Positions 743 through 59,303 are shown, numbered from the stretch's first letter. The stretch: DNA of 64,000 nt from Candidatus Saccharibacteria bacterium RIFCSPHIGHO2_12_FULL_44_22 (GCA_001790515.1 MGCS01000002.1:48234-112233), one strand, 5' to 3'. Program-made: numbers and translations. The notes: generated by a model from the sequence alone, not told the origin.

Positions 743-744
743 GA

Positions 745-4862: not shown

Positions 4863-4864
4863 AA

Positions 4865-35243: not shown

Positions 35244-35244
35244 A

Positions 35245-35262: not shown

Positions 35263-35279
35263 ATCAAACTACGGATAGG

Positions 35280-36014
35280 TTATTTAGGAAGCAGGGTTTT
35301 AAACTGGACATCATCACTCCAGGCGTCATCCAGTATTTTTGTGACCCACTTGTCTACTTTTGCCTTCAGTCGCTCATCACGACATAGTAGCAGTACTGTT
35401 GGGTAGAGTGCCTCAGTCGTCCAATTGTCGTTATCGTACCAATCTACATGTTTCGTAATAGTCTTTCTCATGACCGAATCTGGCATCGTCCCATCAAAGC
35501 ATTCCACGAAGTAATGGGTGCGTTCTTTCGTCTTAGCATTTTCAGTAAAGGCATAGCCGTCAGGCAGCGCCTGAGGAAATAACTCATTACCAGCATAGTC
35601 ACTCCTGGTTCTAAACTGGAGTTGTGTGTGTTCTGTACCATAGAGCCCACTCAGCTGCACACTGGCTGCGAGAACACTTAAGCAATGCCGAATAAATCTG
35701 TCGCTGGCATTGCTGTCTTTCGCGAGCAGCTTTAATAGCTTGGTATCATAAACATTGTCCGTCTTTAGCGCATCAATACCTTTAGGAAGTAGATGGTAGG
35801 CGGCTGGTTTGCCAAGTAACTTATAGCTACTGTCATAGCGTTTCCCTATATATTCCTGTTCAGTAAGTATCCGTAATCTTTCATGAATATAGCGACGACT
35901 AGTAGTGCCTGTAGATTGAGTAAAAAGAGCTGTAGTACCGAACCGAAAGCGAGCAAGAAGTCTGAGTATGTCAAGTTGGTGATGGTTGAGTTGTTTGCGA
36001 TTGCTAGAGTGCAT
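35280..36014 (-). CDS. replication-relaxation family protein (second, AT-richer copy)
   Basis: Same layout as 34398..35243: HHQLDILRLLARFRFGTTALF, IRHCLSVLAASVQL, and LPDGYAF...HYFVECFDGTMP. Confidence 0.6.
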   Translation of the reverse strand: MHSSNRKQLNHHQLDILRLLARFRFGTTALFTQSTGTTSRRYIHERLRILTEQEYIGKRYDSSYKLLGKPAAYHLLPKGIDALKTDNVYDTKLLKLLAKDSNASDRFIRHCLSVLAASVQLSGLYGTEHTQLQFRTRSDYAGNELFPQALPDGYAFTENAKTKERTHYFVECFDGTMPDSVMRKTITKHVDWYDNDNWTTEALYPTVLLLCRDERLKAKVDKWVTKILDDAWSDDVQFKTLLPK

Positions 36015-44290: not shown

Positions 44291-45862
44291 TTAATTTCCA
44301 CCGACGATAAACCACGATCCTGATGCGGTTGTGCTAATAAGCGTGACGTACTTGTACTGAGTAGCGAGGGTGTAGTTGGTCGCTCCGTCGATAGTACCCG
44401 CAATTGTCACCGCATTTGCAGATGAATCAACTTTTTTGATCGTAAATCGATACCCCGCCGTCGTTGTCGTAGGAAGTGTTATTGTATACGCCCCTGCCGT
44501 TGCATTGCATAGTTGGTATTCGACCGAACCGGTCGTGAGCGTCGCGGTCGTTGTTGTTGATGCAGAGGCCGACCGTACACTTCCCGCCGATGCAAATGAA
44601 CCCGATAATGCAAGTGAATATCCCGTTCCAGATACACGTAGTCCTAGATTTGAAAGGACAGTACCAAGATCTGTCGTTGCAGCCGGCTGTACGATTGGTG
44701 TTGCGTTAAAAAATCCAATTTTCTGCGTTGTTGCAGTGCCAATTTTTGAGCCTGTTGTCGTGCCGAGATCGATATTGACACTATCTGCGAGGTTCAGCGA
44801 TGCATTCGTTATTTGTATCGATGAGGTGTTGCCGCTGGTAAACGTCATCCTGTTTACATCAGCAGTGCCAGCCGTATCGCGTGTTCGGAGCACGATAGTA
44901 CCACCCGTCCCCGACTGGTCAATGTATGATGCCGCCGTACGATTAAATTGTAGATTATTTGAAGTGAGCGTTGTCGTGAGTGTGCCGTTCGTTGCCGTGT
45001 GCTGGAGCGACTGAGTAGTGCCCGTGGTAGTCATAGACGTAGGCGCAATCGCGCCCAGTCCGATAGTAATAGCGGGTGTCGTTGTCGCATTGGTCACACT
45101 CGCCGTTACTCCTTGATTACTTGAAACAGACACAGATGTCACCGATGTCGCCACGGCAGTTGCAACAAAAGCCGTCGTCGCAAGCTGCGTCGTTGTCGTG
45201 CCTGCTGTCGCAGTTGGCGCCGTAGGTGTACCTGTGAGTGCAGGTGACGCAAGCGGAGCAAGGAGCGCGTCGGCGGCATCGACATATTGTTTGTTTGTAA
45301 TATGAGTTGCAGCCGTTGGTGTATTGATTGAACTGACGCCGCCCGTCGTACGGTACATGATTGTCGAAGCACCAGTCCCCGAACTAAAGCCAACGGAAAT
45401 GTCGGTACCGCCGCTTCCGCGAGCATACACAATGTTCGTCCCCGTCACGACCGATACTTTTGCGTCAAGCGCAGTTTGTGTTGCGACACTAATCGGCTTG
45501 TCTCCATCGCTGACATTATCAACGCTACCAAGCCCGATGTCACTTTTCGTCAGTATGACGTCACCAGTCATATCGTTTACTTTCGTGACAGGTGCGGATT
45601 GCAGTGCGCTATCGGCTTTAGAAAGCGATGTCTGAACCGTGCTGCTTAGTTTGGCGAGCGCAACGCTGCTATCAGCAATAATCGAAGCGTTGGCTGAATC
45701 ATCCGCAAGAGCGGCATTCGTGACAGAATTTGGCGCAAGCACATTTGCTGTCACTGCATTGTCCTTTAGCTGTCCGTCTGCTTTTAAGGCCTGCGACAAA
45801 TAATCATTGAGTATGTCTCCCCAATTACCTGAGTCTCCACCGGGCTGTGGTAAGCGTGCCAT
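44291..45862 (-). CDS. fibre-family protein: MARLP N-terminal module plus T/S-rich tail-fibre-like body
   Basis: MARLPQPGGDSGNWGDILNDYLSQ start. Phage-fibre-type motifs are PTAPTATAGTTTTQLATTAFV and KIGFFNATPIVQ, with a C-terminal YTITLP...FTIKKVDSSANAVTI...SGSWFIV knob-like pattern. Confidence 0.7.
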   Translation of the reverse strand: MARLPQPGGDSGNWGDILNDYLSQALKADGQLKDNAVTANVLAPNSVTNAALADDSANASIIADSSVALAKLSSTVQTSLSKADSALQSAPVTKVNDMTGDVILTKSDIGLGSVDNVSDGDKPISVATQTALDAKVSVVTGTNIVYARGSGGTDISVGFSSGTGASTIMYRTTGGVSSINTPTAATHITNKQYVDAADALLAPLASPALTGTPTAPTATAGTTTTQLATTAFVATAVATSVTSVSVSSNQGVTASVTNATTTPAITIGLGAIAPTSMTTTGTTQSLQHTATNGTLTTTLTSNNLQFNRTAASYIDQSGTGGTIVLRTRDTAGTADVNRMTFTSGNTSSIQITNASLNLADSVNIDLGTTTGSKIGTATTQKIGFFNATPIVQPAATTDLGTVLSNLGLRVSGTGYSLALSGSFASAGSVRSASASTTTTATLTTGSVEYQLCNATAGAYTITLPTTTTAGYRFTIKKVDSSANAVTIAGTIDGATNYTLATQYKYVTLISTTASGSWFIVGGN

Positions 45863-45870
45863 GTACTGTC

Positions 45871-45900
45871 ATTATACCCTATTGTGCTTGTGGTAAGAAA
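45871..45900 (-). promoter_or_regulatory. promoter block shared with the 49950 fibre gene; -10 TATAAT 8 nt from the ATG
   Basis: Minus-strand TTTCTTACCACAAGCA-N8-TATAAT-N8-ATG. The same TTTCTTACCACAAGCA-N8-TATACT lies upstream of 49950. Confidence 0.45.
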
Positions 45901-46031
45901 CGCTGCGCAAACAAGACAAGAAGTTCGACAGTGTCGAGGCTATCATATGAAATATAGGTAGTTATTTTCTGAGGATTCGGGACTCAAGATAGGAACCTAG
46001 CGGTAGAGCCACAGTACATCAGACATATCAA

Positions 46032-48122
46032 TTACGACCAGCGATGCCGAATGTCTTCTTCAATGACTTCGTCTACAATACCTTTGCCGTGCAGATAGTC
46101 GAGCGTGTGAACGCCAGACGCGGTAATTGATTTTTTAGCCAGGAATCCTAAGTACGGCGCTAGTTCTTGGCCGTGTTTTTCTAGCAAACTATCGACCTTA
46201 TCGGCACATTGCGAGCGGAAATTTGTATACCGTTCAATCACTTTGGTGTATGACACGTCGCTGAAAACAGGCGTATCGTATTGAGTTTGCATCTGCTCAA
46301 TCGTCGACACAACCTTGCGCGCCATAATCATCTGACCTCTATAGTACTGTAGTTTTTCATCAAGAGTGATCTCGCTACCTTTGCGATCAAATACAGTTTG
46401 CATAAAATTAACGAGTCTATCAAAAATATCTTTACGATCAATATGCGAGGTCGGATCAATCTCGTCATGACGAGCATATTCGATCTTTTCGGTCTGAAGA
46501 TTTAATTTACCATTAATCTTGCGAAGCATACGTTCGCTGATTTCACCATTAACATATAGCTGTTTTAGCACGGAACCTTCAATATGGATTGCCATCAGAT
46601 GGAGTGATTGGTCAAAGAGTTTTTGTCCATACTGTTCGCGTAGTTTATCTCGTTCCGACTGCGCAGTCACAATCTGCTGATCAAGCGTTACGGATAACGT
46701 TTTATAATGCTCATCACGTATGAACCCACGGGTTTTATGCGTTTGGAAGCGTGATTTTTCTGTCAGGAGATAATACACGCTCAAGTCGGCTTCGTGCGCC
46801 AATTTAAGCGGCTCTGGCGCGTCGATCTTTAGTCTTCGTATGATAACACCTATCAGTGGAGCTTTAATGAATAGTGTCGCTAAAATACAGCCGATAGTAA
46901 TAGCTAGCAAAAATTCTCTCGGAGTAAACGCATACGCCCAATCAGCTACGATAAAATCTTCCGGTATCAGCAATATAATGATAATCGCGAGCGCACCCCG
47001 AAGACTCCCCCACGCCAGTAATGCTTGCCATGCTGCTGGAATTTTACCTTCAATTTTTGACATGTTAAGCGGAATAACAACACTGTAAACTGCGATGACA
47101 CGTACGACGGCTACCACTACTACAGTAATCAATATTGGTAGCCACAGCACCCTGAAATCAACACCCGAACTGGCAAACAACAATCCCGCCAAAATAAAGA
47201 CGAGTGAGTTTGCTATAAACGCCATATGCTCGATAAACTTGCCGAGATACTCATCGGTCTTTGGCGATAAAGTATGACGCGAGTAGTTACCCAAATACAG
47301 CGCAGCTACTGTTGTTGCGATGATCGATGAAATATGAATCGGCAGCCCAAACAGGCCATGCTCATTAACGATTTCGCCCAAAAGAAAGACGATATGTGCT
47401 GAAATAATGAGCAGGGTCACTGTCACAAATTCATTGCTACGCGTAAAACGCAATGCGCGAGAAAATACCGCCGCCATAAACAATCCCAGTACAATTCCAA
47501 AACCAACCATACCGGCAAACATCAACACACCTTCTGTTACCGTAGCCACGCCGTGGAATCCACCGGTCGCGACTGCCAATATGACCATAAATAACGCCAC
47601 GGCGGTACCGTCGTTAAATAAACTTTCGCCTTCGAATATCATTGTTAAGCGTTTTGGTGCACCGTATTCTTTGAATAACGCCAATACAGCCACAGGGTCA
47701 GTCGATGATATGATCGCAGCAAATAGCAATGCGACGATGAATGGTATATGTAATCCTATGAGAGGCAAAATGAAATACAGCGCTGTTGAAATAAGTGCTG
47801 TTGAAATAAGCAACCCAACGACTGCAAGCAGAGATATCGCCCAAGCGCTATCAAGCATCTTGCGGATATTCATATTAAACGCTGATTCAAATATCAGGAT
47901 CGGCAAGAATATGTAAAACAGCAGTTCTGGGGTTAACTGTACATCGTCAAGAAACCCAAACACCGTTTCTAGCCCAGGTAGTTTCGTTATAGGCACCAGA
48001 ATAATACCGACTAGCACCAACAAAACTGTGTAGGGAACCTTGAACCGCTTGGCCACGAAGAACACTGCCGTCGATAGCGCAAGCAAAGTAAATAATGATA
48101 AAACTGAAGTAATTGTAAGCAT
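46032..48122 (-). CDS. Na+/H+ antiporter (CPA1/NhaP-type) with a long cytoplasmic C-terminal domain
   Basis: About 12 predicted TM helices with cation/proton exchanger-like segments (FESAFNM, ISSTDPVAVLALFKE), followed by a soluble tail of about 280 aa. Confidence 0.8.
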   Translation of the reverse strand: MLTITSVLSLFTLLALSTAVFFVAKRFKVPYTVLLVLVGIILVPITKLPGLETVFGFLDDVQLTPELLFYIFLPILIFESAFNMNIRKMLDSAWAISLLAVVGLLISTALISTALYFILPLIGLHIPFIVALLFAAIISSTDPVAVLALFKEYGAPKRLTMIFEGESLFNDGTAVALFMVILAVATGGFHGVATVTEGVLMFAGMVGFGIVLGLFMAAVFSRALRFTRSNEFVTVTLLIISAHIVFLLGEIVNEHGLFGLPIHISSIIATTVAALYLGNYSRHTLSPKTDEYLGKFIEHMAFIANSLVFILAGLLFASSGVDFRVLWLPILITVVVVAVVRVIAVYSVVIPLNMSKIEGKIPAAWQALLAWGSLRGALAIIIILLIPEDFIVADWAYAFTPREFLLAITIGCILATLFIKAPLIGVIIRRLKIDAPEPLKLAHEADLSVYYLLTEKSRFQTHKTRGFIRDEHYKTLSVTLDQQIVTAQSERDKLREQYGQKLFDQSLHLMAIHIEGSVLKQLYVNGEISERMLRKINGKLNLQTEKIEYARHDEIDPTSHIDRKDIFDRLVNFMQTVFDRKGSEITLDEKLQYYRGQMIMARKVVSTIEQMQTQYDTPVFSDVSYTKVIERYTNFRSQCADKVDSLLEKHGQELAPYLGFLAKKSITASGVHTLDYLHGKGIVDEVIEEDIRHRWS

Positions 48123-48195
48123 ACGTATTCCCTAAAGATGTTTCTAACTTGTATAACTATACGCCTATCACAATGAATAGAAAAGCTACATCAGC

Positions 48196-49950
48196 CTAAA
48201 CTGCGAGTAAAGCAGCATCATTCATAGCAAAGCGTACCGTCGTACCTGCGGAAACTGATACCGGAGACGATGCAGTTGGAGCTGTAAGATTGAGCGTCTG
48301 AGCCGTGCTATTGCGAATCAAGTACGTACGCCGAGCACGTGGAAAAGTGATAGTCCTAGTGGCCGTAAGTGTACCGATAAAATCAATAAACGATGCGTCG
48401 CCTTGCCGAACAGCCAGCGTCGTATCAGCATCAGTTAGTGTAATAGTCGAAAATGGCTGGTGTGTTGAACTGTTGATCTCACAGCCCCATAATTCATTGC
48501 CAAATGCTCCGCTCGCCTGATCGACTTCTGTTCCGGATGTACCTTTTACAATACGGCTATTACGAAGTTGGTTTGCCATACATGCACCGCCAACAAAGCG
48601 AACGACGGATAGAGAGGTCGTCGATGATAACGTTCTGAAATCAGATTGATCCCAAGTATTTTTTTCACATGGCGGAGACGTGGCGCTCTCTAAATAAAGC
48701 GCATACGATCCCGTAGAGTCATACAGTTCGCCTTGTGCTCGAGTGCGGCGTGAGCGTCGAATGTCCATCGTTATGCCAACCGTAATAAACACGTTATCGC
48801 TAAATCGCGCATCGTTCAGAAAGTCAAACCCGCTCCCAAACCCTGAACGATCGAGTGATTTATTCTGCGTCACAGTCGGTGCTATGTTCACGGAAGTGTT
48901 GGCGTTGTTTGACATGCTGATTAACTTGCATGTACTACCCAGATTGGTAAATGTATTACCTGTAACGATCGCATACTGGTGATCACGAGCATATTCGATT
49001 GCAATGGTTGCCGAATCATCAAAATGACAGTGTAATGTTTTGCAACCTAACATCTTGCCGCTGTACGAAAGCGCGATGCCCGTCGTAACGTTACCACAAG
49101 ACAAGAACTGGCATGATTCGGTGCGAACATTACGCACGCGCACCGTCGTATCGGTGTCACCAGTGTGATCCTGAATCTCGACACCCATACGACCACACCT
49201 ATCAAATACGCAGGTATCAAACAAAATATCGTCGACCGCCAAAGCAGCAAGTCCGTCAGCAATTATCTTTGCGCCATTCGTCGCGCGATTGATAGCACGA
49301 AATGTACAACTGCGAAACTTCACACGTTTTAGCGTTTTTGAAAGCGATCGCACCAGTCCGCCTGATGCGTTGTTTGTCGCATCAATTACAGTCGTTTCAA
49401 AAATAATATTCTCAAACGTCACATCTTCACAGTTAATAAGATTGATCAGATTCGTCAATGTATCCGAAAAGATACGAGTGCCGCTCTGCCCCACTACCGT
49501 TACGCCACTGACAGAACCAGCGATCGAAGTTGCCAGATAATAATTTCCGCTCGGGAGAATGAGGTTCTTGCCGAGTGCAAACGCAGCAGCAAGAGCCGCT
49601 GAGTCATTCGTCGTACCGTCACCAACTACCCCTACCTCTCGGACATTCACTAAATCACCAAGTAATCGTGACGTGGCATTAAGTTTTGTCTGCACAGCAC
49701 CACCAAGAAGCACTTCGGTAATCGTTCCGTCGGCAATGATCGAAGCATTGACCGAATCATCCGCAAGCGCTGCATTTGTCACACTGTCCGGAGCAATAGC
49801 TGCTGAAGTCACCGAATTATTCTGTAGCTGGGCAGCACCGATAGTGTTATCTTTTATCGTCCCGTCACTTTTATGAGATTGTGACAAATAATCATTGAGG
49901 ATGTCTCCCCAATTGCCGTTATCTCCTCCTGGTTGTGGTAAGCGTGCCAT
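48196..49950 (-). CDS. fibre-family protein: MARLP N-terminal module plus pectate-lyase-3/parallel beta-helix (tailspike depolymerase-like) domain
   Basis: MARLPQPGGDNGNWGDILNDYLSQ start. VREVGVVGDGTTNDSAALAAAF is the Pectate_lyase_3-type entry motif, followed by repeated beta-helix turns (CTFRAIN, CVFDRCG, CQFLSCG, CHFDDS). Confidence 0.75.
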   Translation of the reverse strand: MARLPQPGGDNGNWGDILNDYLSQSHKSDGTIKDNTIGAAQLQNNSVTSAAIAPDSVTNAALADDSVNASIIADGTITEVLLGGAVQTKLNATSRLLGDLVNVREVGVVGDGTTNDSAALAAAFALGKNLILPSGNYYLATSIAGSVSGVTVVGQSGTRIFSDTLTNLINLINCEDVTFENIIFETTVIDATNNASGGLVRSLSKTLKRVKFRSCTFRAINRATNGAKIIADGLAALAVDDILFDTCVFDRCGRMGVEIQDHTGDTDTTVRVRNVRTESCQFLSCGNVTTGIALSYSGKMLGCKTLHCHFDDSATIAIEYARDHQYAIVTGNTFTNLGSTCKLISMSNNANTSVNIAPTVTQNKSLDRSGFGSGFDFLNDARFSDNVFITVGITMDIRRSRRTRAQGELYDSTGSYALYLESATSPPCEKNTWDQSDFRTLSSTTSLSVVRFVGGACMANQLRNSRIVKGTSGTEVDQASGAFGNELWGCEINSSTHQPFSTITLTDADTTLAVRQGDASFIDFIGTLTATRTITFPRARRTYLIRNSTAQTLNLTAPTASSPVSVSAGTTVRFAMNDAALLAV

Positions 49951-49960
49951 AATAGTGTTC

Positions 49961-49990
49961 AGTATACTACATTATGCTTGTGGTAAGAAA
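49961..49990 (-). promoter_or_regulatory. promoter block shared with the 45862 fibre gene; -10 TATACT 10 nt from the ATG
   Basis: See 45871..45900. The spacing between the conserved block and the -10 box is identical (8 nt). Confidence 0.45.
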
Positions 49991-50146
49991 GGAGGTTGCT
50001 TGGCTACTGCGCGATAGGCATGTATTACGCAACGTACGCATGTATCGCATGATACTCAGCCAACAGAACAACATAATACCAGCAACAATCTTTTTCCAGT
50101 GACGCTTCAGCGTGTCGTCACTATAGATAGTCAAGCTGAGAAACAC

Positions 50147-50875
50147 ATGAGCGAGTATACTAAGTGTATGAACATTCCATTATTTTTGAAGCAGCATCGA
50201 CTAAAAATTGGTGGCATCGCAGGAATCGTCGGAATGCAATACTTTATAGCTGAGTTTATTGCGGCCAATGCCTGGACTGCTACCCCCTATAGCTGGTCGC
50301 GCAATTACATTAGTGATCTGGGCGTGCCAGAATGTCTGGACGCCGGACAATTAGATCGCACAGTGTGTTCACCGCTCTACGGCGTCATGAATGCCGGTTT
50401 TATCACTCAAGCAGTCATCGTGACAATTGTGACAATCTGCCTGATCCACATAGTGTCCAAGCATTGGCGTTATCCAGTAGCATTCATTGCGGCCGTGTAC
50501 TGCACAGGGCTACTGCTCGTTGGACTGTTCCCGGGGTCAGTTGCCGAGAACCTGGGCGGTGATGATATGCGTATGGCAATGCATGGCATTGGTGCACTTA
50601 TGGCAATTCTAGGTGGAAACATCCTCGTTATTACTACCGCGCTTAGTTTGCGCACAAAATTTCCAGACTACGCGATCGTATCGCTACTATTAGGCATCAT
50701 TGGACTTCTTGCATCATTGATGTTTGCCGCGCAGATAGATTTTGGGTTTGGTATTGGCACAATTGAACGCGTCGCAGTTAACCCAATTGTTATATGGACG
50801 GTACTGACCGGTGCAGTTATACTAGCCGCGATATTTGGTCGATCACGAACGCCAGAACGATTTTTGCCACAGTAG
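50147..50875 (+). CDS. DUF998-like integral membrane protein
   Basis: Six to seven TM helices and the YSWSRNYISDLG motif common in DUF998 proteins. The start is uncertain (GTG 50099, ATG 50147 or 50168). Confidence 0.55.
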   Translation: MSEYTKCMNIPLFLKQHRLKIGGIAGIVGMQYFIAEFIAANAWTATPYSWSRNYISDLGVPECLDAGQLDRTVCSPLYGVMNAGFITQAVIVTIVTICLIHIVSKHWRYPVAFIAAVYCTGLLLVGLFPGSVAENLGGDDMRMAMHGIGALMAILGGNILVITTALSLRTKFPDYAIVSLLLGIIGLLASLMFAAQIDFGFGIGTIERVAVNPIVIWTVLTGAVILAAIFGRSRTPERFLPQ

Positions 50876-50887
50876 CTGCAAGACTCA

Positions 50888-51661
50888 TTACGAACGCGAC
50901 ACGCTGACATCATCAATCCAAATACTACCAGTCGTTCCGTCATTACCTACAGATATACTTACTGATGTGTTGGTATCTGTCAGAGTATAGCTACAACTTA
51001 TTTGCGTCCAGTCAGCTTTGACGCCGCCGTATCCACAGGCTTGTAGTAACGTTCCGCCAGATGTTGCGCCGAATCTAATTTTTGAATTGTTGTTCACACC
51101 GTTCCATGTGCTAGCAGATTTAACCCACAAACTAACCGTGTATGTCTGCCCCGCTGTTCCAGAATATGGCCCGCCGTTCAATGTCCTGCCGACACTCCCT
51201 GCATCCAAACGCATCGATGCGGGTGCCGATCGAAATTGTGCTGTATCCGACGTTGCACCAGATATAACCGGCGCTCCAGATTCGTTCCAGACAAGAAGAT
51301 TATAGTTAGTGCATACACCTTGCTGTACGCCGCCACTTGCCTGTGACACATAATACGTCATCGTACCACTCGTTGCTGTCAGACAATATTCCTCAGCAGA
51401 GGCGCTTGAATATTGATACGCAACGCCATCTCCATCTTTGATGTCAGCCTCGCTCAATGATGCGGGATAATTACCATTTGTTGTGTGGTAAACACCTACT
51501 TTTTTAGAATATTGGGTCAGTCCACTTGTTATTGATGCGATTTTTGCCCTATTATTCACACCTTGGTACGCAACGATAACGATAGCCGCCAAAATACCGA
51601 TTACCACGATAACTATCAATAGTTCTACAATTGTGAATCCCCGCCTACCCGAACTGTACAT
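50888..51661 (-). CDS. type IV pilin-like protein with a C-terminal carbohydrate-binding-module-like domain
   Basis: Prepilin leader and cleavage/methylation motif MYSSGRRG|FTIVELLIVIVVIGILAAI. The C-terminal ~130 aa is a beta-sandwich-like region ending GSIWIDDVSVSRS (CBM4/9-like). A TATACT box lies 6 nt upstream of the ATG at 51661. Confidence 0.75.
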   Translation of the reverse strand: MYSSGRRGFTIVELLIVIVVIGILAAIVIVAYQGVNNRAKIASITSGLTQYSKKVGVYHTTNGNYPASLSEADIKDGDGVAYQYSSASAEEYCLTATSGTMTYYVSQASGGVQQGVCTNYNLLVWNESGAPVISGATSDTAQFRSAPASMRLDAGSVGRTLNGGPYSGTAGQTYTVSLWVKSASTWNGVNNNSKIRFGATSGGTLLQACGYGGVKADWTQISCSYTLTDTNTSVSISVGNDGTTGSIWIDDVSVSRS

Positions 51662-51717
51662 AGATTTAGTATACCCTATATTGGTCACGATTAAAATGCG
51701 GCAAAAAAAGAACCCCG

Positions 51718-51984
51718 CTATTTGCGGAGTCCTAGTTTTGCGACAGTTGCTTTGTATTGTTCAAAGTCTTTACGCTCGAGATATTTCAAAAGGCGCTTTC
51801 GCTTCCCAACCATTTGGATAAGTCCGCGACGAGCCATATGGTCGTGCTTGTTAGCCTTGAGATGCTCTGTCACCTCTTTGATACGAGCCGTCAAAACTGA
51901 TGCCTGAGCTTGTGGGCTCCCGACGTCCGTTTTTGAAACCTGAGTCAAAGCAATTGCCTGTGATTTGTTCTCTTTAGTAATCAT
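51718..51984 (-). CDS. rpsO: 30S ribosomal protein S15
   Basis: 88 aa with HLKANKHDHMARRGLIQMVGKRKRLLKYL. Confidence 0.95.
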   Translation of the reverse strand: MITKENKSQAIALTQVSKTDVGSPQAQASVLTARIKEVTEHLKANKHDHMARRGLIQMVGKRKRLLKYLERKDFEQYKATVAKLGLRK

Positions 51985-52029
51985 CAGTTGTGTATTGTAT
52001 CAGAATTATAGAGGTAGCGCAACTAATAG

Positions 52030-52551
52030 CTACTCTTCATCATGATGAGGATTAATCGCACCTGCATCAATCAACGCAGAGCTCAAAACAAGTTCAAGTT
52101 CTGATGCCTCTTCTAGTGTCATAGGGTGATCAATATCACTGATTTCGTCGTCGTCATCTTGCTCAGCAAAAAGCCTCGTAATTGCCTCCATACGAACAGA
52201 CTCATCTGCCGTCTCACCATACGAGGAGGTAGTCCATTCAGGAGCGCCATGACGTGGAATTTTGAAACGGAATGTCGTATCCCCATCGCCATTTTCTTTC
52301 AGTGGCGTCACTGAATAAATCTCATCCGAGTCTCCAGACATCGGCATTTCATATTCAAGATGTAAAGCCTCATACCCTATGGCGCCCATACCCTGGTCAG
52401 TTGCATGAATTTCGGCACGTACAAAGGTAGCGCCGTCTTCTTCAACCCCCATTTCTGCATGCTCTGTTAATAGAATCCGCTTAACATGATCCAGAGATTC
52501 TGTATTAAGAAAATTGATCTGTCTACCATCATTATTAGGTTCATTGTCCAT
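52030..52551 (-). CDS. highly acidic hypothetical protein
   Basis: 173-aa ORF rich in Asp/Glu with no motif I recognise. It lies downstream of the SGNH ORF. Confidence 0.4.
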   Translation of the reverse strand: MDNEPNNDGRQINFLNTESLDHVKRILLTEHAEMGVEEDGATFVRAEIHATDQGMGAIGYEALHLEYEMPMSGDSDEIYSVTPLKENGDGDTTFRFKIPRHGAPEWTTSSYGETADESVRMEAITRLFAEQDDDDEISDIDHPMTLEEASELELVLSSALIDAGAINPHHDEE

Positions 52552-52723
52552 AAATCTATATTAGCATAAAAACTATAAAAAGTCAATTAGCAGACAAATT
52601 AAAACATCGAGCAGAATGTTCTACAAATCAGATCGTTAAAAATATATAAATTGCGTTATTTTAACGAATAGTGCTGTTGTCTCACTTGTGTCTTTTCGAT
52701 AATAAAGCTTGGGATCCATTCGA

Positions 52724-53380
52724 CTATATACGACCGGGGATCGCCTTGTCCATGATCTGCGAACCAATTGTCTTCATGTGCACACCATCGCCGCAATCAA
52801 CATCAGTTGATAGTGCATTCGCATCAGATACAGATGCGAGTCCTTGGTCGAGCCTAAAGCAACCATTCAGACCAAACGGAAGGGATTGAATCCATAAATT
52901 GAACCCATTGCGAATGACATGCTTCCCTGTGTTGTCGGTGGAGTAAATACGTGGCGGAATCGTTCCTGCATAGATTCTAGCATCTGGGTATGCCGACCGC
53001 ACCGCGGCAACAGTAGCGGCGTACTTAGTTTTAATTGTCGATAAGCTATCACCATTATCTATATTATTTGTTCCGAGCTCCACAACCACATAGTCCCATG
53101 CTATAAAACTCCATCGAGACATCCTGTAGGAAGCGGCATTTGACCATATATCGAGCGTCGCACCTGATAATGCAATATTCGTATTTAGCGACCTCGTTCG
53201 ATTTGCATGCGCCACCGACCAAGATGAAAGCATTCCGATACCAGCGTCTCCGGTAGCTCGTCTACCGACAGACAAAGAATCGCCGATTATTAACCCGAGG
53301 GGTGCATCTGTATTAGATTGATACTCTATCCATATGTCAAAAATACTGCCCTCATATGCCACCCTCGTGACGCTCTGCAA
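52724..53380 (-). CDS. SGNH/GDSL hydrolase domain ORF, probably the detached head of the 53431..54174 fibre gene
   Basis: SGNH blocks are IIGDSLSVG, VELGTNN and GDGVHM. The only start is a TTG without an SD. Its frame stays open for another 31 codons upstream and overlaps the end of the preceding ORF in the -1 frame. Confidence 0.6.
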   Translation of the reverse strand: MQSVTRVAYEGSIFDIWIEYQSNTDAPLGLIIGDSLSVGRRATGDAGIGMLSSWSVAHANRTRSLNTNIALSGATLDIWSNAASYRMSRWSFIAWDYVVVELGTNNIDNGDSLSTIKTKYAATVAAVRSAYPDARIYAGTIPPRIYSTDNTGKHVIRNGFNLWIQSLPFGLNGCFRLDQGLASVSDANALSTDVDCGDGVHMKTIGSQIMDKAIPGRI

Positions 53381-53430
53381 AGGTGCATCTGCAGCATTTG
53401 CAACGTAAAAGCATCCACCATAACCTCTTC

Positions 53431-54174
53431 CTATTTGAGTGCCTGCTGTGCAGTGTAACCAAAAGATAAGTTATAGCCTACATGCTTCTGAAATTGCTGG
53501 TTTGAAGCTGTAATCCATGGTGAAGTATATTCCGTCGAGAGATCCGAGGCAGTCCAGCCCGATAAGACTTGAATAGGAACTGTTTTAGATTTAGCATCCC
53601 ACCCACTCTCAATATCGGTAAACGGAGAAAGCCATACCCCATTAAAGACAACCTGACCTGGGTAGGAAACCGCGTCACGAGTATTATAATTTCGTATGTG
53701 CAGCCTCCACTGTTTTGTCGCAACAGGCAGACGTACGGAATTGACAATATTGACGCCAGGTCCGCCTACACCAAGTGAACTCGATGGCGTATTCCCTCCA
53801 CATGCCGAAACAATAAAAATACCTGTTTTGGCGCCTACTTCAGAAGGTTTCGCGTACATTTCATCAAAGTCAGTTTGATTTATATCCGTAAATGGAATTC
53901 CACTAGAGGGCTTAGTGTACTTTTCTGCTACATCTACAGCCTGCGCTGCAGTGTCCGCTCGAGCAAGTGAGTTCTGTATCGACATTGTAAGGCTACTGAC
54001 CATAACGCTGCCATCCAAAATAGCATCCTGTGTCACAGAACCAGTAGCTAGGTTGCTGGCCACAATAATACTGTCTTTGATTGTTCCGTCCGCCTTATGT
54101 GACGTAGCAAGATAGTCATTGAGAATACTTCCCCAATTGCCTGCGTCTCCTCCTGGTTGTGGTAGTCTAGCCAT
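53431..54174 (-). CDS. fibre-family protein: MARLP N-terminal module plus beta-sandwich-like domain (possibly truncated)
   Basis: MARLPQPGGDAGNWGSILNDYLATSHKADGTIKD start and a YTKPSSGIPFTDI fibre-type motif. It ends 50 nt before the SGNH ORF. Confidence 0.7.
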   Translation of the reverse strand: MARLPQPGGDAGNWGSILNDYLATSHKADGTIKDSIIVASNLATGSVTQDAILDGSVMVSSLTMSIQNSLARADTAAQAVDVAEKYTKPSSGIPFTDINQTDFDEMYAKPSEVGAKTGIFIVSACGGNTPSSSLGVGGPGVNIVNSVRLPVATKQWRLHIRNYNTRDAVSYPGQVVFNGVWLSPFTDIESGWDAKSKTVPIQVLSGWTASDLSTEYTSPWITASNQQFQKHVGYNLSFGYTAQQALK

Positions 54175-54313
54175 GATACCGTTTTATCCTTTGTACGCTC
54201 TCTTTATTATGCAGCTGTTGCGAACTAGTGCATGAATTTGTTATTAGTATACTACATCACGGTTATGGCTAGGGGGAGTTGTTGTGAATACGCAAAACTC
54301 ACTGCTAGGCGGA
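54175..54313 (-). promoter_or_regulatory. conserved promoter plus ~71-nt leader shared with the 56111 fibre gene
   Basis: Co-linear with 56112..56252. Shared plus-strand blocks are CTCTCTTT, ATGCAGC, GTGCATGAATTT and TTAGTATAC (-10 TATACT on the minus strand at 54246..54251), with a distal block (G/A)ATAC(G/A)CAAAAC..(C/G)C(T/C)GCTAGGC(G/A)GA. Confidence 0.5.
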
Positions 54314-54619
54314 GCCAAAGTCCCTATAGCGGCGGTCATGGGTACTGAAGGGTTCAATTAGGTTAACCCCGGCTCGCCTATACATTCATTTTAATATTGG
54401 GTAAATTGTAGGTTTTGGAGTATTTGACTGTTTAAAAACAGGCCAAAGCACTATGAAATATCGTGGTTTAGAGTTTAGGTAAAGATATTGTGTAGCGTTA
54501 GGGGTTTAACCCGCATATCTACAACACGAAGACTTTATCTGCGGAATGATATTATGAAATATATCTTCTATTTCCAAGAATGAAGCTTGGAATCAGGGGA
54601 ACTTGAATAGTCTATGGAG

Positions 54620-54820
54620 TTATTTATCTTTCTCATCTTTCTCAAGCTGGCTTTCTAATTTTTCTACTTCGGCAGGTAACCCTGCGAGCATTTCTCTCGC
54701 TTGAGATAGCGGAACGGAAACTGGCGACAGCTCCGGACCCGGCGAGAGTTCATCTTCGTCATCCCATACGAGTACGGGTTGGATTACTATGTGCGCGATT
54801 CTCAATCGTTTCTTTGTCAT
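54620..54820 (-). CDS. small acidic protein (66 aa) coupled to the upstream fibre gene
   Basis: The ATG at 54820 lies 14 nt after the fibre gene stop. Sequence is MTKKRLRIAHIVIQPVLVWDDEDELSPGPEL...EVEKLESQLEKDEKDK. I recognise no family. Confidence 0.4.
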   Translation of the reverse strand: MTKKRLRIAHIVIQPVLVWDDEDELSPGPELSPVSVPLSQAREMLAGLPAEVEKLESQLEKDEKDK

Positions 54821-54833
54821 AAGTTTTCTTTCA

Positions 54834-56111
54834 TTAACTTTGCAATAATCCGTATCCTGCGGTTGAATGAAGGTCATCCACGAGAGCTTTTACGACCCCC
54901 GCTAATTCTGTCAGCGTGACAGTACTCGTATCAAAGGTTGTGCGCTTAGAAGTTCCTGTTGCCACTGCCCACCCTGCACGCTTTGTTACTGGCGTTGCTC
55001 CAAAGAAAGCCAGACGTTTTGCTCCTGTGCCGCCATTGCCGATGGCTAATATTGTTTCGTATGATGCAGAGCCTAGCGCCGCGTTTGCGCTCGCTTCGAA
55101 TATTAGTGATGTTGACGATTGACGTATTCGTGACTGGTAGTAGATGTTTGCCGTACCAGAGTTACGCGCAAACTCGATGCCGTTCATATCTAAGTAAACA
55201 TGGCTACGGCTAGTAGCAGGTACTGTGGAATCATCTCTGGCGTCAATTCGAGCAGATGCGCCATTGAACTCAACATTAGTTCCGAATTCTAGTATTCCGT
55301 CTGCGCTTCGTACGGAGAATCCCTTAGCGTTCGCACCCTGTACCTTCAAGATTCGAGACGTCGATGCCGTTTCGTACGAAATAAGGTCGAGTAGAGATGC
55401 GGCACCACCGGTAGTGAGTTTCTGTTCAGCGTACACCGCAGGTGCAAGGTTCGATTTTTGATCGATATTCAAACCGTAGGCAGTGGCACTAGTGATGCTC
55501 GAAACCTGTTCGATTTTAAGGCCAATTCCTTTAGCCTTATTTCTAAAAATAAAGCCGTTACCTAATCCGGCGTCAATACCGACTCCGACAAGCCAGCTTC
55601 CATTTGATGTATTTTGTCCAGCCATTAAATGAAATAGATAGCCTGCCGTATCGTTATGGATATATTCCCATACGCCTGCACGTGCGTCACCGGTTGGCTT
55701 AATGACGACAGGTGATCCTACGGGGGTGCCCATATTAGAAACATAGCCAGTCGTGATATTTGATGCCGCAGCTTGCGAAAGTGCAGCATCAGCCTTATCC
55801 AGACTCGCTTGTACCGAACTTACGAGTTTTATTTTAGCCACACTCCCATCAACAATATTTGCTGGCGCATTTAGTTTTGTCTGCACTGCTGTAGCTAGGA
55901 GTGTTTCGGTTATCGAGCCATCGGCAATTGTACTTGCATCTACCGAATCGCTCGCAAGTGCAGCGCTGGTTACAGAGCTTGGAGCAAGTGCGCTTGCCGT
56001 CACGGCGTTATCTTTGATGGTTCCATCAGATTTATGACTCTGCACCAAATAATCATTGAGAATACTCCCCCAATTCCCTGCGTCACCTCCTGGTTGTGGT
56101 AAGCGTGCCAT
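54834..56111 (-). CDS. fibre-family protein: MARLP N-terminal module plus uncharacterised head
   Basis: MARLPQPGGDAGNWGSILNDYLVQSHKSDGTIKD start. The first ~85 aa are co-linear with the 49950 copy. The C-terminal region has the KRLAFFGATPVTK motif also seen in 44291..45862. Confidence 0.7.
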   Translation of the reverse strand: MARLPQPGGDAGNWGSILNDYLVQSHKSDGTIKDNAVTASALAPSSVTSAALASDSVDASTIADGSITETLLATAVQTKLNAPANIVDGSVAKIKLVSSVQASLDKADAALSQAAASNITTGYVSNMGTPVGSPVVIKPTGDARAGVWEYIHNDTAGYLFHLMAGQNTSNGSWLVGVGIDAGLGNGFIFRNKAKGIGLKIEQVSSITSATAYGLNIDQKSNLAPAVYAEQKLTTGGAASLLDLISYETASTSRILKVQGANAKGFSVRSADGILEFGTNVEFNGASARIDARDDSTVPATSRSHVYLDMNGIEFARNSGTANIYYQSRIRQSSTSLIFEASANAALGSASYETILAIGNGGTGAKRLAFFGATPVTKRAGWAVATGTSKRTTFDTSTVTLTELAGVVKALVDDLHSTAGYGLLQS

Positions 56112-56252
56112 GATTGTGTTTTAGCCCTTGAACCCTCTCTTTGTCATGCAGCAATACTATATGTGTGCATGAATTTAATCTTAGTATACATGATTATGCT
56201 AGTGCCTAGAAGTGGGGGTGTTTTGGATACACAAAACCCGCCGCTAGGCAGA
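56112..56252 (-). promoter_or_regulatory. conserved promoter plus ~71-nt leader shared with the 54174 fibre gene
   Basis: The -10 TATACT (minus strand) lies at 56183..56188, the same distance from the ATG as in the 54174 copy. Confidence 0.5.
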
Positions 56253-56285
56253 TTCTTTCGAACCTCATGCAAGTTTCCAGGCATG

Positions 56286-56333
56286 ACCTTGTAAGCATCC
56301 TAACGACGGGGTCAGTATGCTTACAAGGTTTTT
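56286..56333 (+). terminator. orphan intrinsic-terminator-like hairpin on the plus strand
   Basis: 13-bp perfect stem ACCTTGTAAGCAT / ATGCTTACAAGGT with an 18-nt loop, followed by TTTT. There is no plus-strand ORF upstream. Confidence 0.4.
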
Positions 56334-56481
56334 GCTACCGTACAAAAGCCGAAGCTTGAGCCTTAGGTAGGATCGCCGAATTGTAGGTGCGATTGATGCA
56401 ACGCAAATGTTGCTTGCGGTTATTGTAGCATATCGAGTAGTGGATATGGAATAATGCTACGGCTAATTATGATGAGCGTAG

Positions 56482-57195
56482 CTACCAACCTGTCGAAGCA
56501 CTAAATGTGCGTGACTGACCAGGTTGTAGTAGCTGATCATCGCTCGGGTCGTCCTGTAGGAATGCATACCCTGCGTACGTTGGTTCTAGGCAGACATAAT
56601 TACCTAGCTGGTCAGACCACGCTGCCCAGGTCGTTAGATCATCAGACGCCATCGTGATCGTTCGTTTTTGCAGCGCTAATCGTTTGGAAGTGCCTTCGGA
56701 AAACAGCGTGCCTTCTAGATCCTGCACATCGACCGTCTCGCCGTCGATACTCACCTGCCCTTCGCCATCTGCTACGGCAAAATATGGGTGAAACCCAGGT
56801 GCGATGCGCAATTCGCTCGTGCCATTGTTCACTACCTTTAGGGTGATCGTAATCGACGCCTCGTCGAGCGCATATGTCAGCTGTGACGACAAATCACGAT
56901 ACTCATCGTCACCATTCGGTAGTTCCAATGTCACTTCGCTCTGCGTCTGCCTGGCAACAGCCCACACCATCTGACGGCCAAAGCCGTGTTGCGCTTGGTC
57001 GCTCAGTCCACCTGGTCCAAAATTTGGCAGACAGACATGACAGCCGCCACGCTGTTTTTTGGATCCATCTGCAGCGGTCAATAGGCGCTTTGGAAACAAT
57101 ATATCACCGTTATCATCAGATAGATTCATTAACCACGCGCCGTCGATCGACACCAATGCTTTTGTCGATCCGTTCCATAGTTCAATAACATCCAT
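56482..57195 (-). CDS. aldose 1-epimerase family protein (hexose-6-phosphate mutarotase-like)
   Basis: 237 aa. GGCHVCLPNFGP resembles the GGIPxCxPxFG motif, and HGFGRQMVW and the distal FHPYF fit the mutarotase fold. Confidence 0.7.
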   Translation of the reverse strand: MDVIELWNGSTKALVSIDGAWLMNLSDDNGDILFPKRLLTAADGSKKQRGGCHVCLPNFGPGGLSDQAQHGFGRQMVWAVARQTQSEVTLELPNGDDEYRDLSSQLTYALDEASITITLKVVNNGTSELRIAPGFHPYFAVADGEGQVSIDGETVDVQDLEGTLFSEGTSKRLALQKRTITMASDDLTTWAAWSDQLGNYVCLEPTYAGYAFLQDDPSDDQLLQPGQSRTFSASTGW

Positions 57196-57205
57196 ATTTT
57201 GCCTC

Positions 57206-57940
57206 CTAATCTTTTATGCCAAAATCCGCCAATGTTTGCGCGTCTTCGATCTTCCATTTATTAATAGCTGTGCGTCGTAGCTGCGTACAATACGCACCAG
57301 TACCCAGGTGCGTTCCGATATCTGCTGCCAGGCTGCGAATATAGGTGCCGCTACTGACATGTGTGCGGATTTTTACTTCTGGATACGCATATTCCACAAG
57401 TTCAAGGCTGTGGATTGTTACCGTCCGTTCTGGTATTTCAACTTCTTCACCGTTTCGCGCCAGTTTATAGGCACGCTGGCCATTGATCTTGATGGCGCTG
57501 AAGATTGGTGGACGCTGTTGTATGTCGCCCGTGAATACACCCATTGCTTGCTCAATACTGTCGCGCAGCGGCTGATCGTTAGATATATCGGTAATTTCAC
57601 CCTCCGGATCCCCGGTACTGCTGGTTTGCCCTAGTCTGATTGTCGCTTCGTACACTTTGTCGAGTTTTGTGTAATGCCCGGAATTTTTACATTCTTTACC
57701 GATGACCAGGATCATCAGGCCAGTCGCGAACGGATCAAGTGTTCCAGTATGCCCCACTTTGACGCGCTGGCGCTTATGAGGGACAACCGATGGTTTTTCC
57801 TCATCGCTCCGGGCGCGGAGTGAATCCGCCGCTCGGGCTGCTCCTTTTCCTTGTTCGCTCAAGACGCGTCGAATTCGTGCTACTACACCGAAGCTAGTCA
57901 TTTCGGCTGGTTTGTCGATAAGGATTATTCCGTCTGTCAT
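57206..57940 (-). CDS. truB: tRNA pseudouridine(55) synthase TruB
   Basis: GIILIDKPAEMTSF and the catalytic GHTGTLDPFATGLMILVIG motif. Confidence 0.95.
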   Translation of the reverse strand: MTDGIILIDKPAEMTSFGVVARIRRVLSEQGKGAARAADSLRARSDEEKPSVVPHKRQRVKVGHTGTLDPFATGLMILVIGKECKNSGHYTKLDKVYEATIRLGQTSSTGDPEGEITDISNDQPLRDSIEQAMGVFTGDIQQRPPIFSAIKINGQRAYKLARNGEEVEIPERTVTIHSLELVEYAYPEVKIRTHVSSGTYIRSLAADIGTHLGTGAYCTQLRRTAINKWKIEDAQTLADFGIKD

Positions 57941-58046
57941 TAGGTGTTATTATACCTTTCTTTTTGAAAAGAGTTAAACCCTTACTTTTTAACAAAAAAG
58001 TAACAAAATGTCTTCTTTTGGCTGCCCAAAAGAAGCAAAAGGGGTT

Positions 58047-58416
58047 GTGACTGCTTCCTTCCGCCGAGACAAAGCAGGCAAAAAGAATGGGTGCTGCGGG
58101 ACTCCCTTCGGTCGGTCCATTTTTATTTCTCTAGTTATTTAAAATGGACTAATCCTCGCACATTATTCCATTCTCTTTGCCTGCTTTGTCTCGGGTCAGT
58201 CCAGATGTCACGAAGAGTTAATTCATATCGACGCAGTAGAACTGCGATTCATTCTTCACTCCGTGTTTCATTCGTTACTGAACGAAGTTCAGTAACAATA
58301 ACAATAGATAGCTTTTTCCGTGACATTCTGCACCGACCCGAGAGCTTCAAGGGCGCAGGGACGGTCGCTAAGTCCTCGCGAATTATTCCGTCCATGTGCC
58401 CTTGAAGCTCACGGTG
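58047..58416. other. densely structured intergenic region: two related stem-loop units plus smaller hairpins (candidate ncRNA or MITE-like repeat)
   Basis: Unit A pairs 58064..58090 with 58168..58194 (26/27). Unit B pairs 58342..58354 with 58398..58410 (13/13), with inner 58359..58364/58388..58393. Both units start CCGAGA and contain CTAA(G)TCCTCGC.(A/C)ATTATTCC. A perfect 10-bp hairpin lies at 58274..58296. Confidence 0.4.
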
Positions 58417-58564
58417 GAGGGAAGCTGTCACAGTTCTTTTGCTAAAGAACATACAGGAGTTTGGTTCTTTGCTGAAAAAACAATTATATGAATGAGTTGA
58501 ATGGATAACGATTGGATCCTGAATCGAGTTCAGAATGACAACAGCAAAGTGCTATACTAAAACC

Positions 58565-59248
58565 ATGCAAAAGATCATCATCGGCATATTCGCCCATCCA
58601 GATGACGAAGCCTTTGGCCCAAGTGGCACTTTATTGATGGAAACGCAGGCGGGCGCAGAGCTGCATCTGATCACCCTGACTGCTGGTGAAAATGGCATGA
58701 ACCCTGATAATCATGAGAATCTGCGCGAGATTCGCCTACAAGAATGGCGCCGAGCTGGTGAACTAATCGGCGCAAAACACATGCACCATTTGGGCTATAT
58801 GGACGGCGAACTAGGCAATAAAGACCACGTTGAAATCACCAGTCAAATCATGGCACTCGTCCAAGACATCACCGAAGATCGTGATGATGTTGAAATAGAG
58901 TTTATGAGTATTGATCTAAACGGCATTACAGGCCACATCGACCACATTGTAGCCGGCCGCAGTGCATGTTTGGCGTTTTATCGTCTAAAAGAGATGGGTC
59001 TACCGGTCACTCGTATTCGCCTGGCCTGCGTGTCGTGTGATCACTTTTGCGATATAAACACTGACTTTGTGTTTATGGAACCTGGCCATCAGCCAGAAGA
59101 GATCGATGAGATCATCGACGCCCGACATTTAGCTGACAAGGTATTCGAAATTGTTCGCTGTCATCACACTCAGCGAAGCGATGGCGAAACGCACATTGCA
59201 CACAGAGGCAAAGACGTCGCGCTCAATCATTTTATCGTTCGTACATAA
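58565..59248 (+). CDS. PIG-L/LmbE family deacetylase
   Basis: AHPDDE motif (IIGIFAHPDDEAFGPSG) and a downstream GHIDHI. I prefer the ATG at 58565. Confidence 0.8.
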   Translation: MQKIIIGIFAHPDDEAFGPSGTLLMETQAGAELHLITLTAGENGMNPDNHENLREIRLQEWRRAGELIGAKHMHHLGYMDGELGNKDHVEITSQIMALVQDITEDRDDVEIEFMSIDLNGITGHIDHIVAGRSACLAFYRLKEMGLPVTRIRLACVSCDHFCDINTDFVFMEPGHQPEEIDEIIDARHLADKVFEIVRCHHTQRSDGETHIAHRGKDVALNHFIVRT

Positions 59249-59249
59249 T

Positions 59250-59279
59250 AAATACACCGCATGTGGCTGCGGTGTATTT
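59250..59279. terminator. bidirectional intrinsic terminator
   Basis: 11-bp perfect stem AAATACACCGC / GCGGTGTATTT with an 8-nt loop, between convergent genes. Confidence 0.7.
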
Positions 59280-59303
59280 ATTATGTAGTTCTGTTTTACT
59301 AGC

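Follow-up and report, generated by a model that had tools for sequence, protein, structure and literature searches.

The host choice and attachment of epibionts from the candidate phyla radiation (CPR)/Patescibacteria are a central question, and to our knowledge nothing besides type IV pili and the new Pam pili has so far been implicated in either. A 64,000-nucleotide stretch of DNA from Candidatus Saccharibacteria bacterium RIFCSPHIGHO2_12_FULL_44_22 (GCA_001790515.1, MGCS01000002.1:48234-112233; hereafter the window, always at its full length) raises a related question. It contains five genes whose products share a short N-terminal module and carry entirely different, phage-fibre-like C-terminal parts, here called heads. 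What are such genes doing in this chromosome? We consider it rather probable that they represent cell-encoded, phage-derived modular fibre proteins directed at the host envelope and resident in Saccharibacteria chromosomes. The family offers candidate host-specificity determinants that are widespread in Saccharibacteria.

Five genes with a common N-terminal module

All five open reading frames (ORFs) listed in a first-pass annotation of the window are present on the minus strand: A (30319-31773), B (44291-45862), C (48196-49950), D (53431-54174) and E (54834-56111). Their products start with the common sequence MARLP(Q/K)PGGDxGNWGxILNDYL..DGxxKD and diverge beyond it. The search of all six frames with a hidden Markov model (HMM) of the module yielded exactly these five copies and none besides. 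The module itself comprises 35 residues. In E it is encoded at 56007-56111 on the minus strand and has the sequence MARLPQPGGDAGNWGSILNDYLVQSHKSDGTIKDN, with a helix at residues 13-25 in the AlphaFold2 (AF2) model; its equivalents lie on the same strand at 31669-31773 (A), 45758-45862 (B), 49846-49950 (C) and 54070-54174 (D). The paralogues are 57-91% identical over the first 35 residues, and their heads are unrelated.

The similarity is visible in the DNA as well. The first 66 nucleotides of C (from 49950) and E (from 56111) differ at 11 positions, exactly as had been counted by hand. Of the codons for residues identical between these two genes, 12 out of 32 differ, and among the ten pairs formed by A-E this share ranges from one third to more than half. 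The abundance of synonymous differences indicates that the module is kept by purifying selection on the protein and not by recent gene conversion, which was thereby ruled out as the cause of the similar 5' ends. The shared 5' ends of the family genes are the only long repeats of the window. Homologous upstream regions were found for the pairs E and D, and C and B. Promoter and terminator scans gave no signal above the shuffled background.

Heads and their relatives in actinobacterial phages

The product of E (425 amino acids, aa) consists of the module, a repeat/coiled-coil stalk, a head at residues 129-380 and a C-terminal GFFGATP motif. The same protein is annotated as A2707_04890 in Ca. Saccharibacteria RIFCSPHIGHO2_01_FULL_45. 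It matched no curated family in Pfam, PHROGs and PDB sequence searches. Its residues 129-380 are 42% identical to the 'tail spike protein' gp4 of the Gordonia phage Yikes (E-value 1e-58, GFFGATP included), and nine of the ten phage records matched by this head belong to Gordonia phages. The product of B (523 aa) combines the module with the tail-fibre repeat GDVxLTKxDxGLGxVDN, a T/S-rich shaft, and a GFFNATP region followed by a knob. Matches to minor-tail and tail-fibre PHROGs agree with its initial description as a fibre. The GFFNATP region and knob (residues 380-520) show 55% identity to gp26 of the Gordonia phage Stormageddon; all 31 phage records matched by the knob are Gordonia phages, and the short stalk repeat of B matched 27 Mycobacterium phage records. 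The GFF(G/N)ATP motifs pointed out earlier are real and also occur in Gordonia phage tail proteins.

A further match was found for a paralogue, P0065 (A2707_00735), whose residues 141-620 are 52% identical over 480 aa to gp36 of the Rhodococcus equi phage Tonitrus (E-value 7e-161); the match takes in all of gp36 except its first 45 residues. Together with the head of A, described below, the heads of E, B and P0065 are homologous to annotated phage tail proteins, and that of C had no phage match. These four heads match Gordonia and Rhodococcus phage proteins, with no Mycobacterium phage among the matches. In every case the phage homologue carries a different N-terminus, so that the head is common and the adaptor is swapped. 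The heads have been exchanged with the pool of receptor-binding proteins of actinobacterial phages and prophages, here mainly of Gordonia and Rhodococcus phages. Because of this homology the host of the Saccharibacterium is probably a mycolic-acid actinobacterium, which fits the known pair of Ca. Mycosynbacter amalyticus and Gordonia amarae (PMC11880426).

The remaining heads of the window are enzyme-like. The product of C (584 aa) has stalk repeats after the module and a right-handed beta-helix/pectate-lyase-like head, an earlier assignment with which Pfam agrees (Beta_helix/Pect-lyase). D (247 aa) corresponds to the N-terminal half of a gene that a frameshift has divided; its displaced head is the SGNH esterase ORF F (52724-53380, minus strand). 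This follows from the collinearity of D and F with the intact relatives P0092 (529 aa) and P0239 (505 aa), and the split is identical in four independent assemblies. SGNH heads had been noted at 30319 and next to 53431. The first is confirmed by the PF13472 domain of A and the second by F, except that D and F are one split gene and not neighbours. Similarly, SVT/IADGSIT repeats had been ascribed to all five copies; they are found in B, C and E, D has them in part, and A lacks them.

The head repertoire was surveyed with Pfam in 78 Saccharibacteria members of the family. The most frequent matches are DUF5907 repeats (24 members), followed by Collagen (9), BppL_N (8), SGNH (7), Pectate-lyase-like (6), GH172/DUF2961 (5), Beta-helix (5), PTR (4) and CBM5/12 (2), with one member each for Alpha-1,3-glucanase, GH5 and Phage_tail_C. 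Further relatives, judged by their precomputed domains, also have polysaccharide deacetylase, SASA and polysaccharide lyase. At the level of sequence, a conserved N-terminus is thus combined with variable receptor-binding or enzymatic C-termini. The view of a polymorphic family with one N-terminal module and swappable glycan-binding or glycan-degrading heads is supported. Diversification by a diversity-generating retroelement was considered and rejected, as the window contains neither template and variable repeats nor a reverse transcriptase domain.

Gene A: a foreign head on a native module

Gene A (30319-31773, minus strand, 484 aa) consists of a low-GC module and stalk and a head with SGNH (PF13472) and jelly-roll domains, encoded at 30319-31437 on the minus strand (residues 113-484). 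The GC content at third codon positions (GC3) is 0.35-0.55 in codons 1 to approximately 85 and 0.75-1.0 from about codon 90 on. The upstream flank (GC 0.39) is native-like. GC3 of the module equals 0.40, and the head has GC 0.69 and GC3 0.91. The jump in GC3 from module to head is therefore 0.51, and in none of more than 60 other Saccharibacteria members does it exceed 0.25. Over residues 113-484 the product of A shows 69% identity to a Pseudarthrobacter protein (E-value 6e-177) whose gene closes a prophage tail/lysis block containing tape measure, Dit, M23 peptidase and holin genes. This protein and other homologues of the head carry at least four other N-termini. The best matches among cultured phages are Gordonia phage hydrolases (31% identity to the hydrolase of phage Clark). 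The exact product of gene A has no record in the contig index searched. The junction is spanned by an independent sequence, P0265, which is 99% identical, so the chimera is not an assembly artefact. In gene A a foreign head has been grafted onto the native module, and the gene is caught immediately after the capture.

A is located in a mobile-element-like island (26120-36014, GC 0.50-0.71 vs approximately 0.44 in the flanks). Its genes code for two VirD4/TraG-like coupling proteins, a tyrosine integrase (29164-30192) and two Replic_Relax proteins; one of the coupling-protein genes is split into 32218-33948 and 33994-34401. An IS1595-family transposase gene (DDE_Tnp_IS1595 with a zinc ribbon, 36142-37158) directly adjoins the island. 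A comparable arrangement was found in Microbacterium sp. CnD16-F (L109), where the gene of a protein with the module and an SGNH domain lies at a distance of 3.6 kb from those of a VirD4-like coupling protein and Replic_Relax. The latter two have homologous, syntenic counterparts in the window island, which hints at cross-phylum traffic of elements between Saccharibacteria and Actinobacteria. The possible relation of the island to Mycolicibacterium agri loci was rejected, since they share no homology except the module. In the mycobacterial isolate M. agri CCUG37673 two members are truncated, encoding 191 aa (L018:778-1353) and 65 aa (L021:10001-10198), on contigs with GC 0.58-0.61.

The position of A between VirD4/TraG-like and Replic_Relax genes, the Microbacterium element, and VirD4-like genes close to members at three other loci would all suit an explanation in which the module is a docking or recognition element for a monoderm-type type IV secretion system (T4SS). 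The proteins would then be T4SS-associated wall-remodelling or adhesion factors that first evolved on actinobacterial conjugative elements, and T4SS substrates indeed lack Sec signals. We consider this improbable, given that most members are far from T4SS genes and that phage tail blocks, in which a T4SS plays no part, contain the module as well. Moreover, T4SS substrates usually bear their signals at the C-terminus, A has a 5' part and a promoter region of native low-GC DNA that do not derive from the element, and the module had no match in the 72,556 plasmids of PLSDB.

The module in cells, phages and mobile elements

The search with an HMM of the first 52 residues in 1.84 billion proteins, clustered at 50% identity, retrieved 6,461 cluster representatives that carry the module, nearly always at residue 1. 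Thirteen of its positions are near-invariant across thousands of proteins. Searches of Pfam, NCBIfam and PDB sequences gave no match. Since a homologue search with a 113-aa query returned only proteins shorter than 200 aa, full-length queries were used.

At least 558 stretches encoding the module were found in GTDB with one genome per species. The best 80 of them come from approximately 53 assemblies, almost all of Saccharibacteria, with up to 7 copies per assembly, and lie at conserved chromosomal loci. Confinement of the family to prophage or tailocin clusters, which would have made the genes prophage remnants, is therefore not observed.

The module is also present in viruses. Proteins starting with M(A/S)RLPx(V/I)GxDxxxWGxxLN(D/E)(F/Y)L are encoded on 25 IMG/VR contigs with GC from 34 to 70%, and on annotated viral contigs they are located in tail blocks: directly after the major head, major tail and tape measure genes (L089), between the major head and tail fibre genes (L094), or after the tape measure gene (L100). 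The window module is the same as that which starts tailspike-like proteins in these real phage tail blocks. Together with the closeness of the heads of A, B, E and P0065 to Gordonia and Rhodococcus phage tail proteins and to the Pseudarthrobacter prophage protein, this supports the tail-fibre and tailspike character that had been assigned to the motifs. Module proteins are encoded by the Streptomyces phages BRock, GiJojo and LuckySocke too. There the member lies in a large tRNA array outside the main tail block (L005:11600-12337, L107:11956-13398 and L108:8001-9398, respectively), with a small 'peptidase' gene next downstream. The module thus occurs in three settings, namely real phage tail blocks, an actinobacterial conjugative-element-like island and, massively, Saccharibacteria chromosomes.

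Chromosomal context

Apart from the family, all genes of the window are either housekeeping genes or part of the one mobile island. The neighbours include genes for pilM, YchF, Fpg, EF-P, S18, SSB, S6, FtsK, GH16, two RNase J and PNPase, as well as truB, aldose epimerase, rpsO, the antiporter NhaP, a UvrA-like ABC protein, thioredoxin and NUDIX. The interleaving with housekeeping genes described in the first-pass annotation (rpsO, NhaP, the UvrA-like ABC protein) is therefore evident, and it extends to truB, pnp, RNase J and FtsK. Domain scans of the 64-kb window agree with the earlier failure to see capsid, terminase, portal, tube, tape-measure or baseplate genes. Capsid, terminase, portal, tube and tape-measure genes were not found in two further 20-kb regions of the genome either. 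The flanks of 76 Saccharibacteria loci (1.1 Mb) contained no phage structural homologues when compared with the proteins of the fetched phage loci, and a PHROG scan restricted to the two nearest neighbours, one on each side of each member, gave no phage structural genes. Location within a phage or prophage tail gene block is true only of the homologues on viral contigs.

The genome of approximately 1.04 Mb contains at least ten members, five in the window and five in the two further regions. The arrangement seen in the window was found on 16 contigs. Clustering of all neighbours in the 1.1 Mb of flanks revealed hrcA, grpE, dnaK, ftsH, tilS, murJ, lepA, truB, rpsO and pnp as recurrent. They define two recurrent homes of the family, murJ/ftsH/tilS-[member]-hrcA/grpE/dnaK and truB-[member]-rpsO-pnp, the latter being the locus of the window. 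At the truB locus of different species the module has a median identity of 69%, and the heads differ; none of them resembles the heads of E, D or C. These genes constitute a large, uncurated modular family that has been expanded and maintained at housekeeping loci in Saccharibacteria, several of which are conserved across species.

This distribution bears on the possibility that the proteins are components of a phage-derived particle (a prophage, a tailocin, an agent like a gene transfer agent or a contractile system) whose structural genes lie elsewhere, the module plugging into a baseplate and release occurring by lysis. Such a particle would account for tail proteins in real phage tail blocks that start with the same module, for the lack of export signals, which release by lysis would not need, and for the module-less fibre-like and 'tail assembly'-like genes adjoining some members. 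Nevertheless, it seems unlikely in view of the structural genes missing from all regions scanned, the conserved housekeeping loci across species and the number of copies, at least 10 in about 1 Mb of genome.

The simpler notion of a prophage remnant was rejected on the grounds of synteny across species and neighbour content; only A is near an integrase, and its island is conjugative-element-like. In the broader form of decaying remnants or selfish morons with no current cellular role, this explanation could draw on the frameshifted copy and on the copy residing in a mobile island beside the IS1595 transposase. It is very improbable all the same, because the module is under strong purifying selection with many synonymous changes, the ORFs are intact, syntenic positions have been kept across many species, and the expansion is lineage-wide.

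Two local features of the window are also worth recording. Upstream of E, one further assembly from this species has different DNA (L002:1-3400 vs L001:1-3500, approximately window 56200-59500), with PadR, DUF1048, DUF305 and metal-repressor genes in place of truB, aldose epimerase and PIG-L; a rearrangement breakpoint lies directly beside this family member. The two RNase J paralogues (14888-17086 and 19493-21337) are 4.4 kb apart and share 55 nucleotides at 75% identity (15653-15707 and 20081-20135).

Predicted structure and adjacent genes

The module consists of a strand/loop, the helix at residues 13-25 and a DG-x-x-K turn; in the AF2 models the predicted local distance difference test (pLDDT) values are 73-91 in the N-terminal region. 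Short helices are predicted in the repeat stalk, and a long one at approximately residues 90-126 of E; the separate model of E residues 1-128 has a pLDDT of 77.4. The sole near-match in Foldseek was the already known BRock protein (E-value 0.087). The fibre matches Bd2133, Mu and HylP were non-significant and were not used as evidence.

Of the 16 pilin-like ORFs in the surveyed loci, 5 are no more than 1 kb away from a member, compared with approximately 1.6 expected under a uniform distribution; this association of pilin genes with members is suggestive only. In the genome of the window, a DUF348/G5 protein gene and two pilin genes come after three members (L110:14371-15598), and at another locus a pilin gene begins 4 nucleotides past the stop codon of a member (L044:11708-12313). 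The window itself has a type IV pilin-like gene with an N_methyl motif between C and D/F (50888-51688), the C-terminal domain of which looks lectin- or CBM-like by eye. A type IV pilus assembly cluster occupies positions 62-5473. PilM was identified by Pfam there, and two upstream ORFs are pilN/pilO-like by eye, without a Pfam match; the cluster also encodes a 767-aa secreted protein (2565-4868) and a 202-aa membrane protein that is TPR-like by eye, neither with a Pfam match.

A conserved protein of 158-164 aa (MPFTGTGTGIQNAND...WYGSLVGTNF), absent from the window, is encoded 10-15 nucleotides downstream of a member in seven Saccharibacteria loci (L022:4854-5330, L025:11691-12176, L026:11296-11790, L031:10973-11449, L038:11506-11982, L043:3796-4272 and L053:11222-11698). 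At one locus (L050) a protein of this type is fused to the module. Several immediate neighbours, probably proteins of this type, match PHROG 'tail fiber protein' families. By its position the gene corresponds to one for a phage fibre tip or for a fibre assembly protein.

Small proteins of 70-90 aa with a Y(N/D)CxxYGxGxY motif, an LxxTG sortase-like motif, a transmembrane helix and a basic tail are encoded 0.7-2.3 kb upstream of members (L025:7570-7803, L031:7774-8049, L038:8129-8347, L059:8011-8244, L068:9058-9306 and L076:3871-4113); in the Microbacterium element such a gene is directly upstream of the member (L109:9752-9997). They could serve as an anchor. Considered as a universal partner, they are present in six loci and the Microbacterium element but absent from the window.

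Proposed mode of action

The proteins have a common architecture of the 35-residue module, a short repeat/coiled-coil stalk and a variable head, and would form trimeric fibres. The heads, that is SGNH esterases, beta-helix lyase-like domains, GH172, deacetylases, knobs and collagen, are predicted to bind or modify cell-envelope glycans. The module may attach the fibres to a single partner structure on the Saccharibacterium that all of them share, or at any rate nucleate their trimerisation; export would have to be Sec-independent. At the envelope of the actinobacterial host the heads may then act in recognition and in local degradation or de-esterification, and their repertoire would help to set the host range. 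The original working model of surface fibres with a common adaptor and exchangeable heads is upheld as far as the modular family, the glycan-active or phage-like heads and the lack of phage context are concerned.

A wider proposal, which we regard as possible rather than likely, is that the module is a universal 'plug' of phage tails, actinobacterial conjugative elements and Saccharibacteria. The epibiont would mount freshly captured actinophage heads on a single structure borne by its cell. This could be a pilus, a conduit derived from a T4SS or the 'lance' that cryo-electron tomography has shown in M. amalyticus. Export would be Sec-independent, and the head repertoire would define the host range, here Gordonia- or Rhodococcus-like mycolata. 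The hosts of uncultured CPR bacteria could then be told from the homology of the heads to phage proteins.

Several observations weigh against the reading of the family as host-directed fibres. The AF2 models are monomeric, the overall pLDDT of E is 67.6, and its head is poorly predicted. Foldseek searches of the models of E and of its residues 1-128 against PDB and BFVD gave no significant match. The 78 members have no signal peptide, no consistent transmembrane segment and no sortase motif (LPXTG), which for the window copies agrees with the first-pass annotation as regards signal peptides; surface exposure would thus need another route. No docking partner for the module was identified, and clustering of the neighbours revealed no gene that is consistently adjacent. 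The D/F frameshift means that not every copy is necessarily functional, and the head of C has no homologue among the cultured phages searched. The host assignment leans on databases of cultured phages that are rich in SEA-PHAGES actinophages. Finally, the 35-residue module could be a mere trimerisation or folding nucleus.

The last point leads to the view that the proteins are soluble, released glycan-active enzymes or lectins, with the module as a trimerisation or folding cap inherited from phage fibres and without a docking partner. In favour of this view, collagen or coiled-coil segments, which depend on a trimerisation nucleus, begin right after the very short module; the module is kept across phages with unrelated tail proteins and GC of 34-70%, which is hard to fit to one specific partner, and no conserved neighbour was found. 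However, placement at residue 1 and near-invariant positions are typical of an interaction surface, phage fibres attach to the virion by their N-termini, and release would still require an export route. We therefore hold this explanation to be rather unlikely and retain that of cell-encoded, host-directed fibres.

If correct, the latter provides an evolutionary mechanism, in which heads are captured from phages of the host and grafted onto a native adaptor. It would also make the hosts of uncultured Saccharibacteria predictable from the homology of the heads to proteins of phages with known hosts. The module itself represents a large uncurated family that joins phage tails, conjugative elements and cellular genes and poses an export puzzle. 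Head capture as seen in the chimeric gene A, the likely mycolata host and the precedent discussed last in the following section are additions to the first-pass annotation.

Comparison with known systems

The literature searched contains no characterisation of the module family. Its sole trace is an uncharacterised 'tail fibre-like protein' conserved beside the pam pilus operon in CPR genomes (bioRxiv 10.64898/2026.03.03.709456), on which the supplement of that preprint has nothing.

The most direct comparison is with phage receptor-binding proteins such as Yikes gp4, Stormageddon gp26 and Tonitrus gp36. They share the modular logic, heads that are 42-55% identical and the GFF(G/N)ATP motif, and MARLP-type modules start tailspike-like proteins of uncultured and Streptomyces phages. 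In contrast to phage genes, those of the window lie outside phages and prophages and are multi-copy, at housekeeping loci across Saccharibacteria species; the homologues from cultured actinophages use other N-termini.

Polymorphic toxins likewise combine one conserved N-terminal region with many alternative C-terminal modules that are exchanged by recombination and horizontal capture. The heads of our family are of fibre or glycan type and not toxins, immunity genes are missing, and the N-terminus is no known trafficking domain. No conserved small downstream gene of the immunity type was found in the window, and the 158-aa downstream gene seen elsewhere is itself fibre-like. Type IV and Pam pilins begin with a class III (N_methyl) or a Sec signal peptide, and neither was found in A-E.

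In the collagen-like proteins of the BclA family of the Bacillus exosporium, a short conserved N-terminal motif targets several fibres to a surface layer without a signal peptide. The likeness consists in a short N-terminal motif on otherwise different fibres, some of them collagen-like, that lack signal peptides. The motif of BclA has no sequence similarity to the Saccharibacteria module. Assembly of BclA inside the mother cell explains the absent signal peptide, and we know of no mother-cell-like compartment in Saccharibacteria.

The mosaic adhesive trimer (MAT) fibres of Bdellovibrio bacteriovorus (Caulton et al. 2024) are encoded by 21 paralogous genes, the products of which agree in the N-terminal domain and differ in their mosaic tips. 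That domain is invariant, beta-rich and approximately 130 aa long and follows a Sec signal peptide, and 13 of the 21 proteins end in an S74 chaperone-protease (PMC10769870). The differences are considerable. The Saccharibacteria module has 35 residues with a helix at 13-25, stands at the very N-terminus and is not preceded by a signal peptide; S74 is not among the 16 Pfam families matched by the 78 Saccharibacteria members; no sequence or significant fold similarity was found, and the cell is monoderm and belongs to another phylum. The likeness is in the overall design: a bacterium living off bacteria has many chromosomal phage-fibre-like genes with a constant N-terminus and swappable tips, which in MAT serve prey-envelope recognition. 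By this analogy, MAT fibres can be regarded as the closest functional precedent of the family, an analogue and not a homologue.

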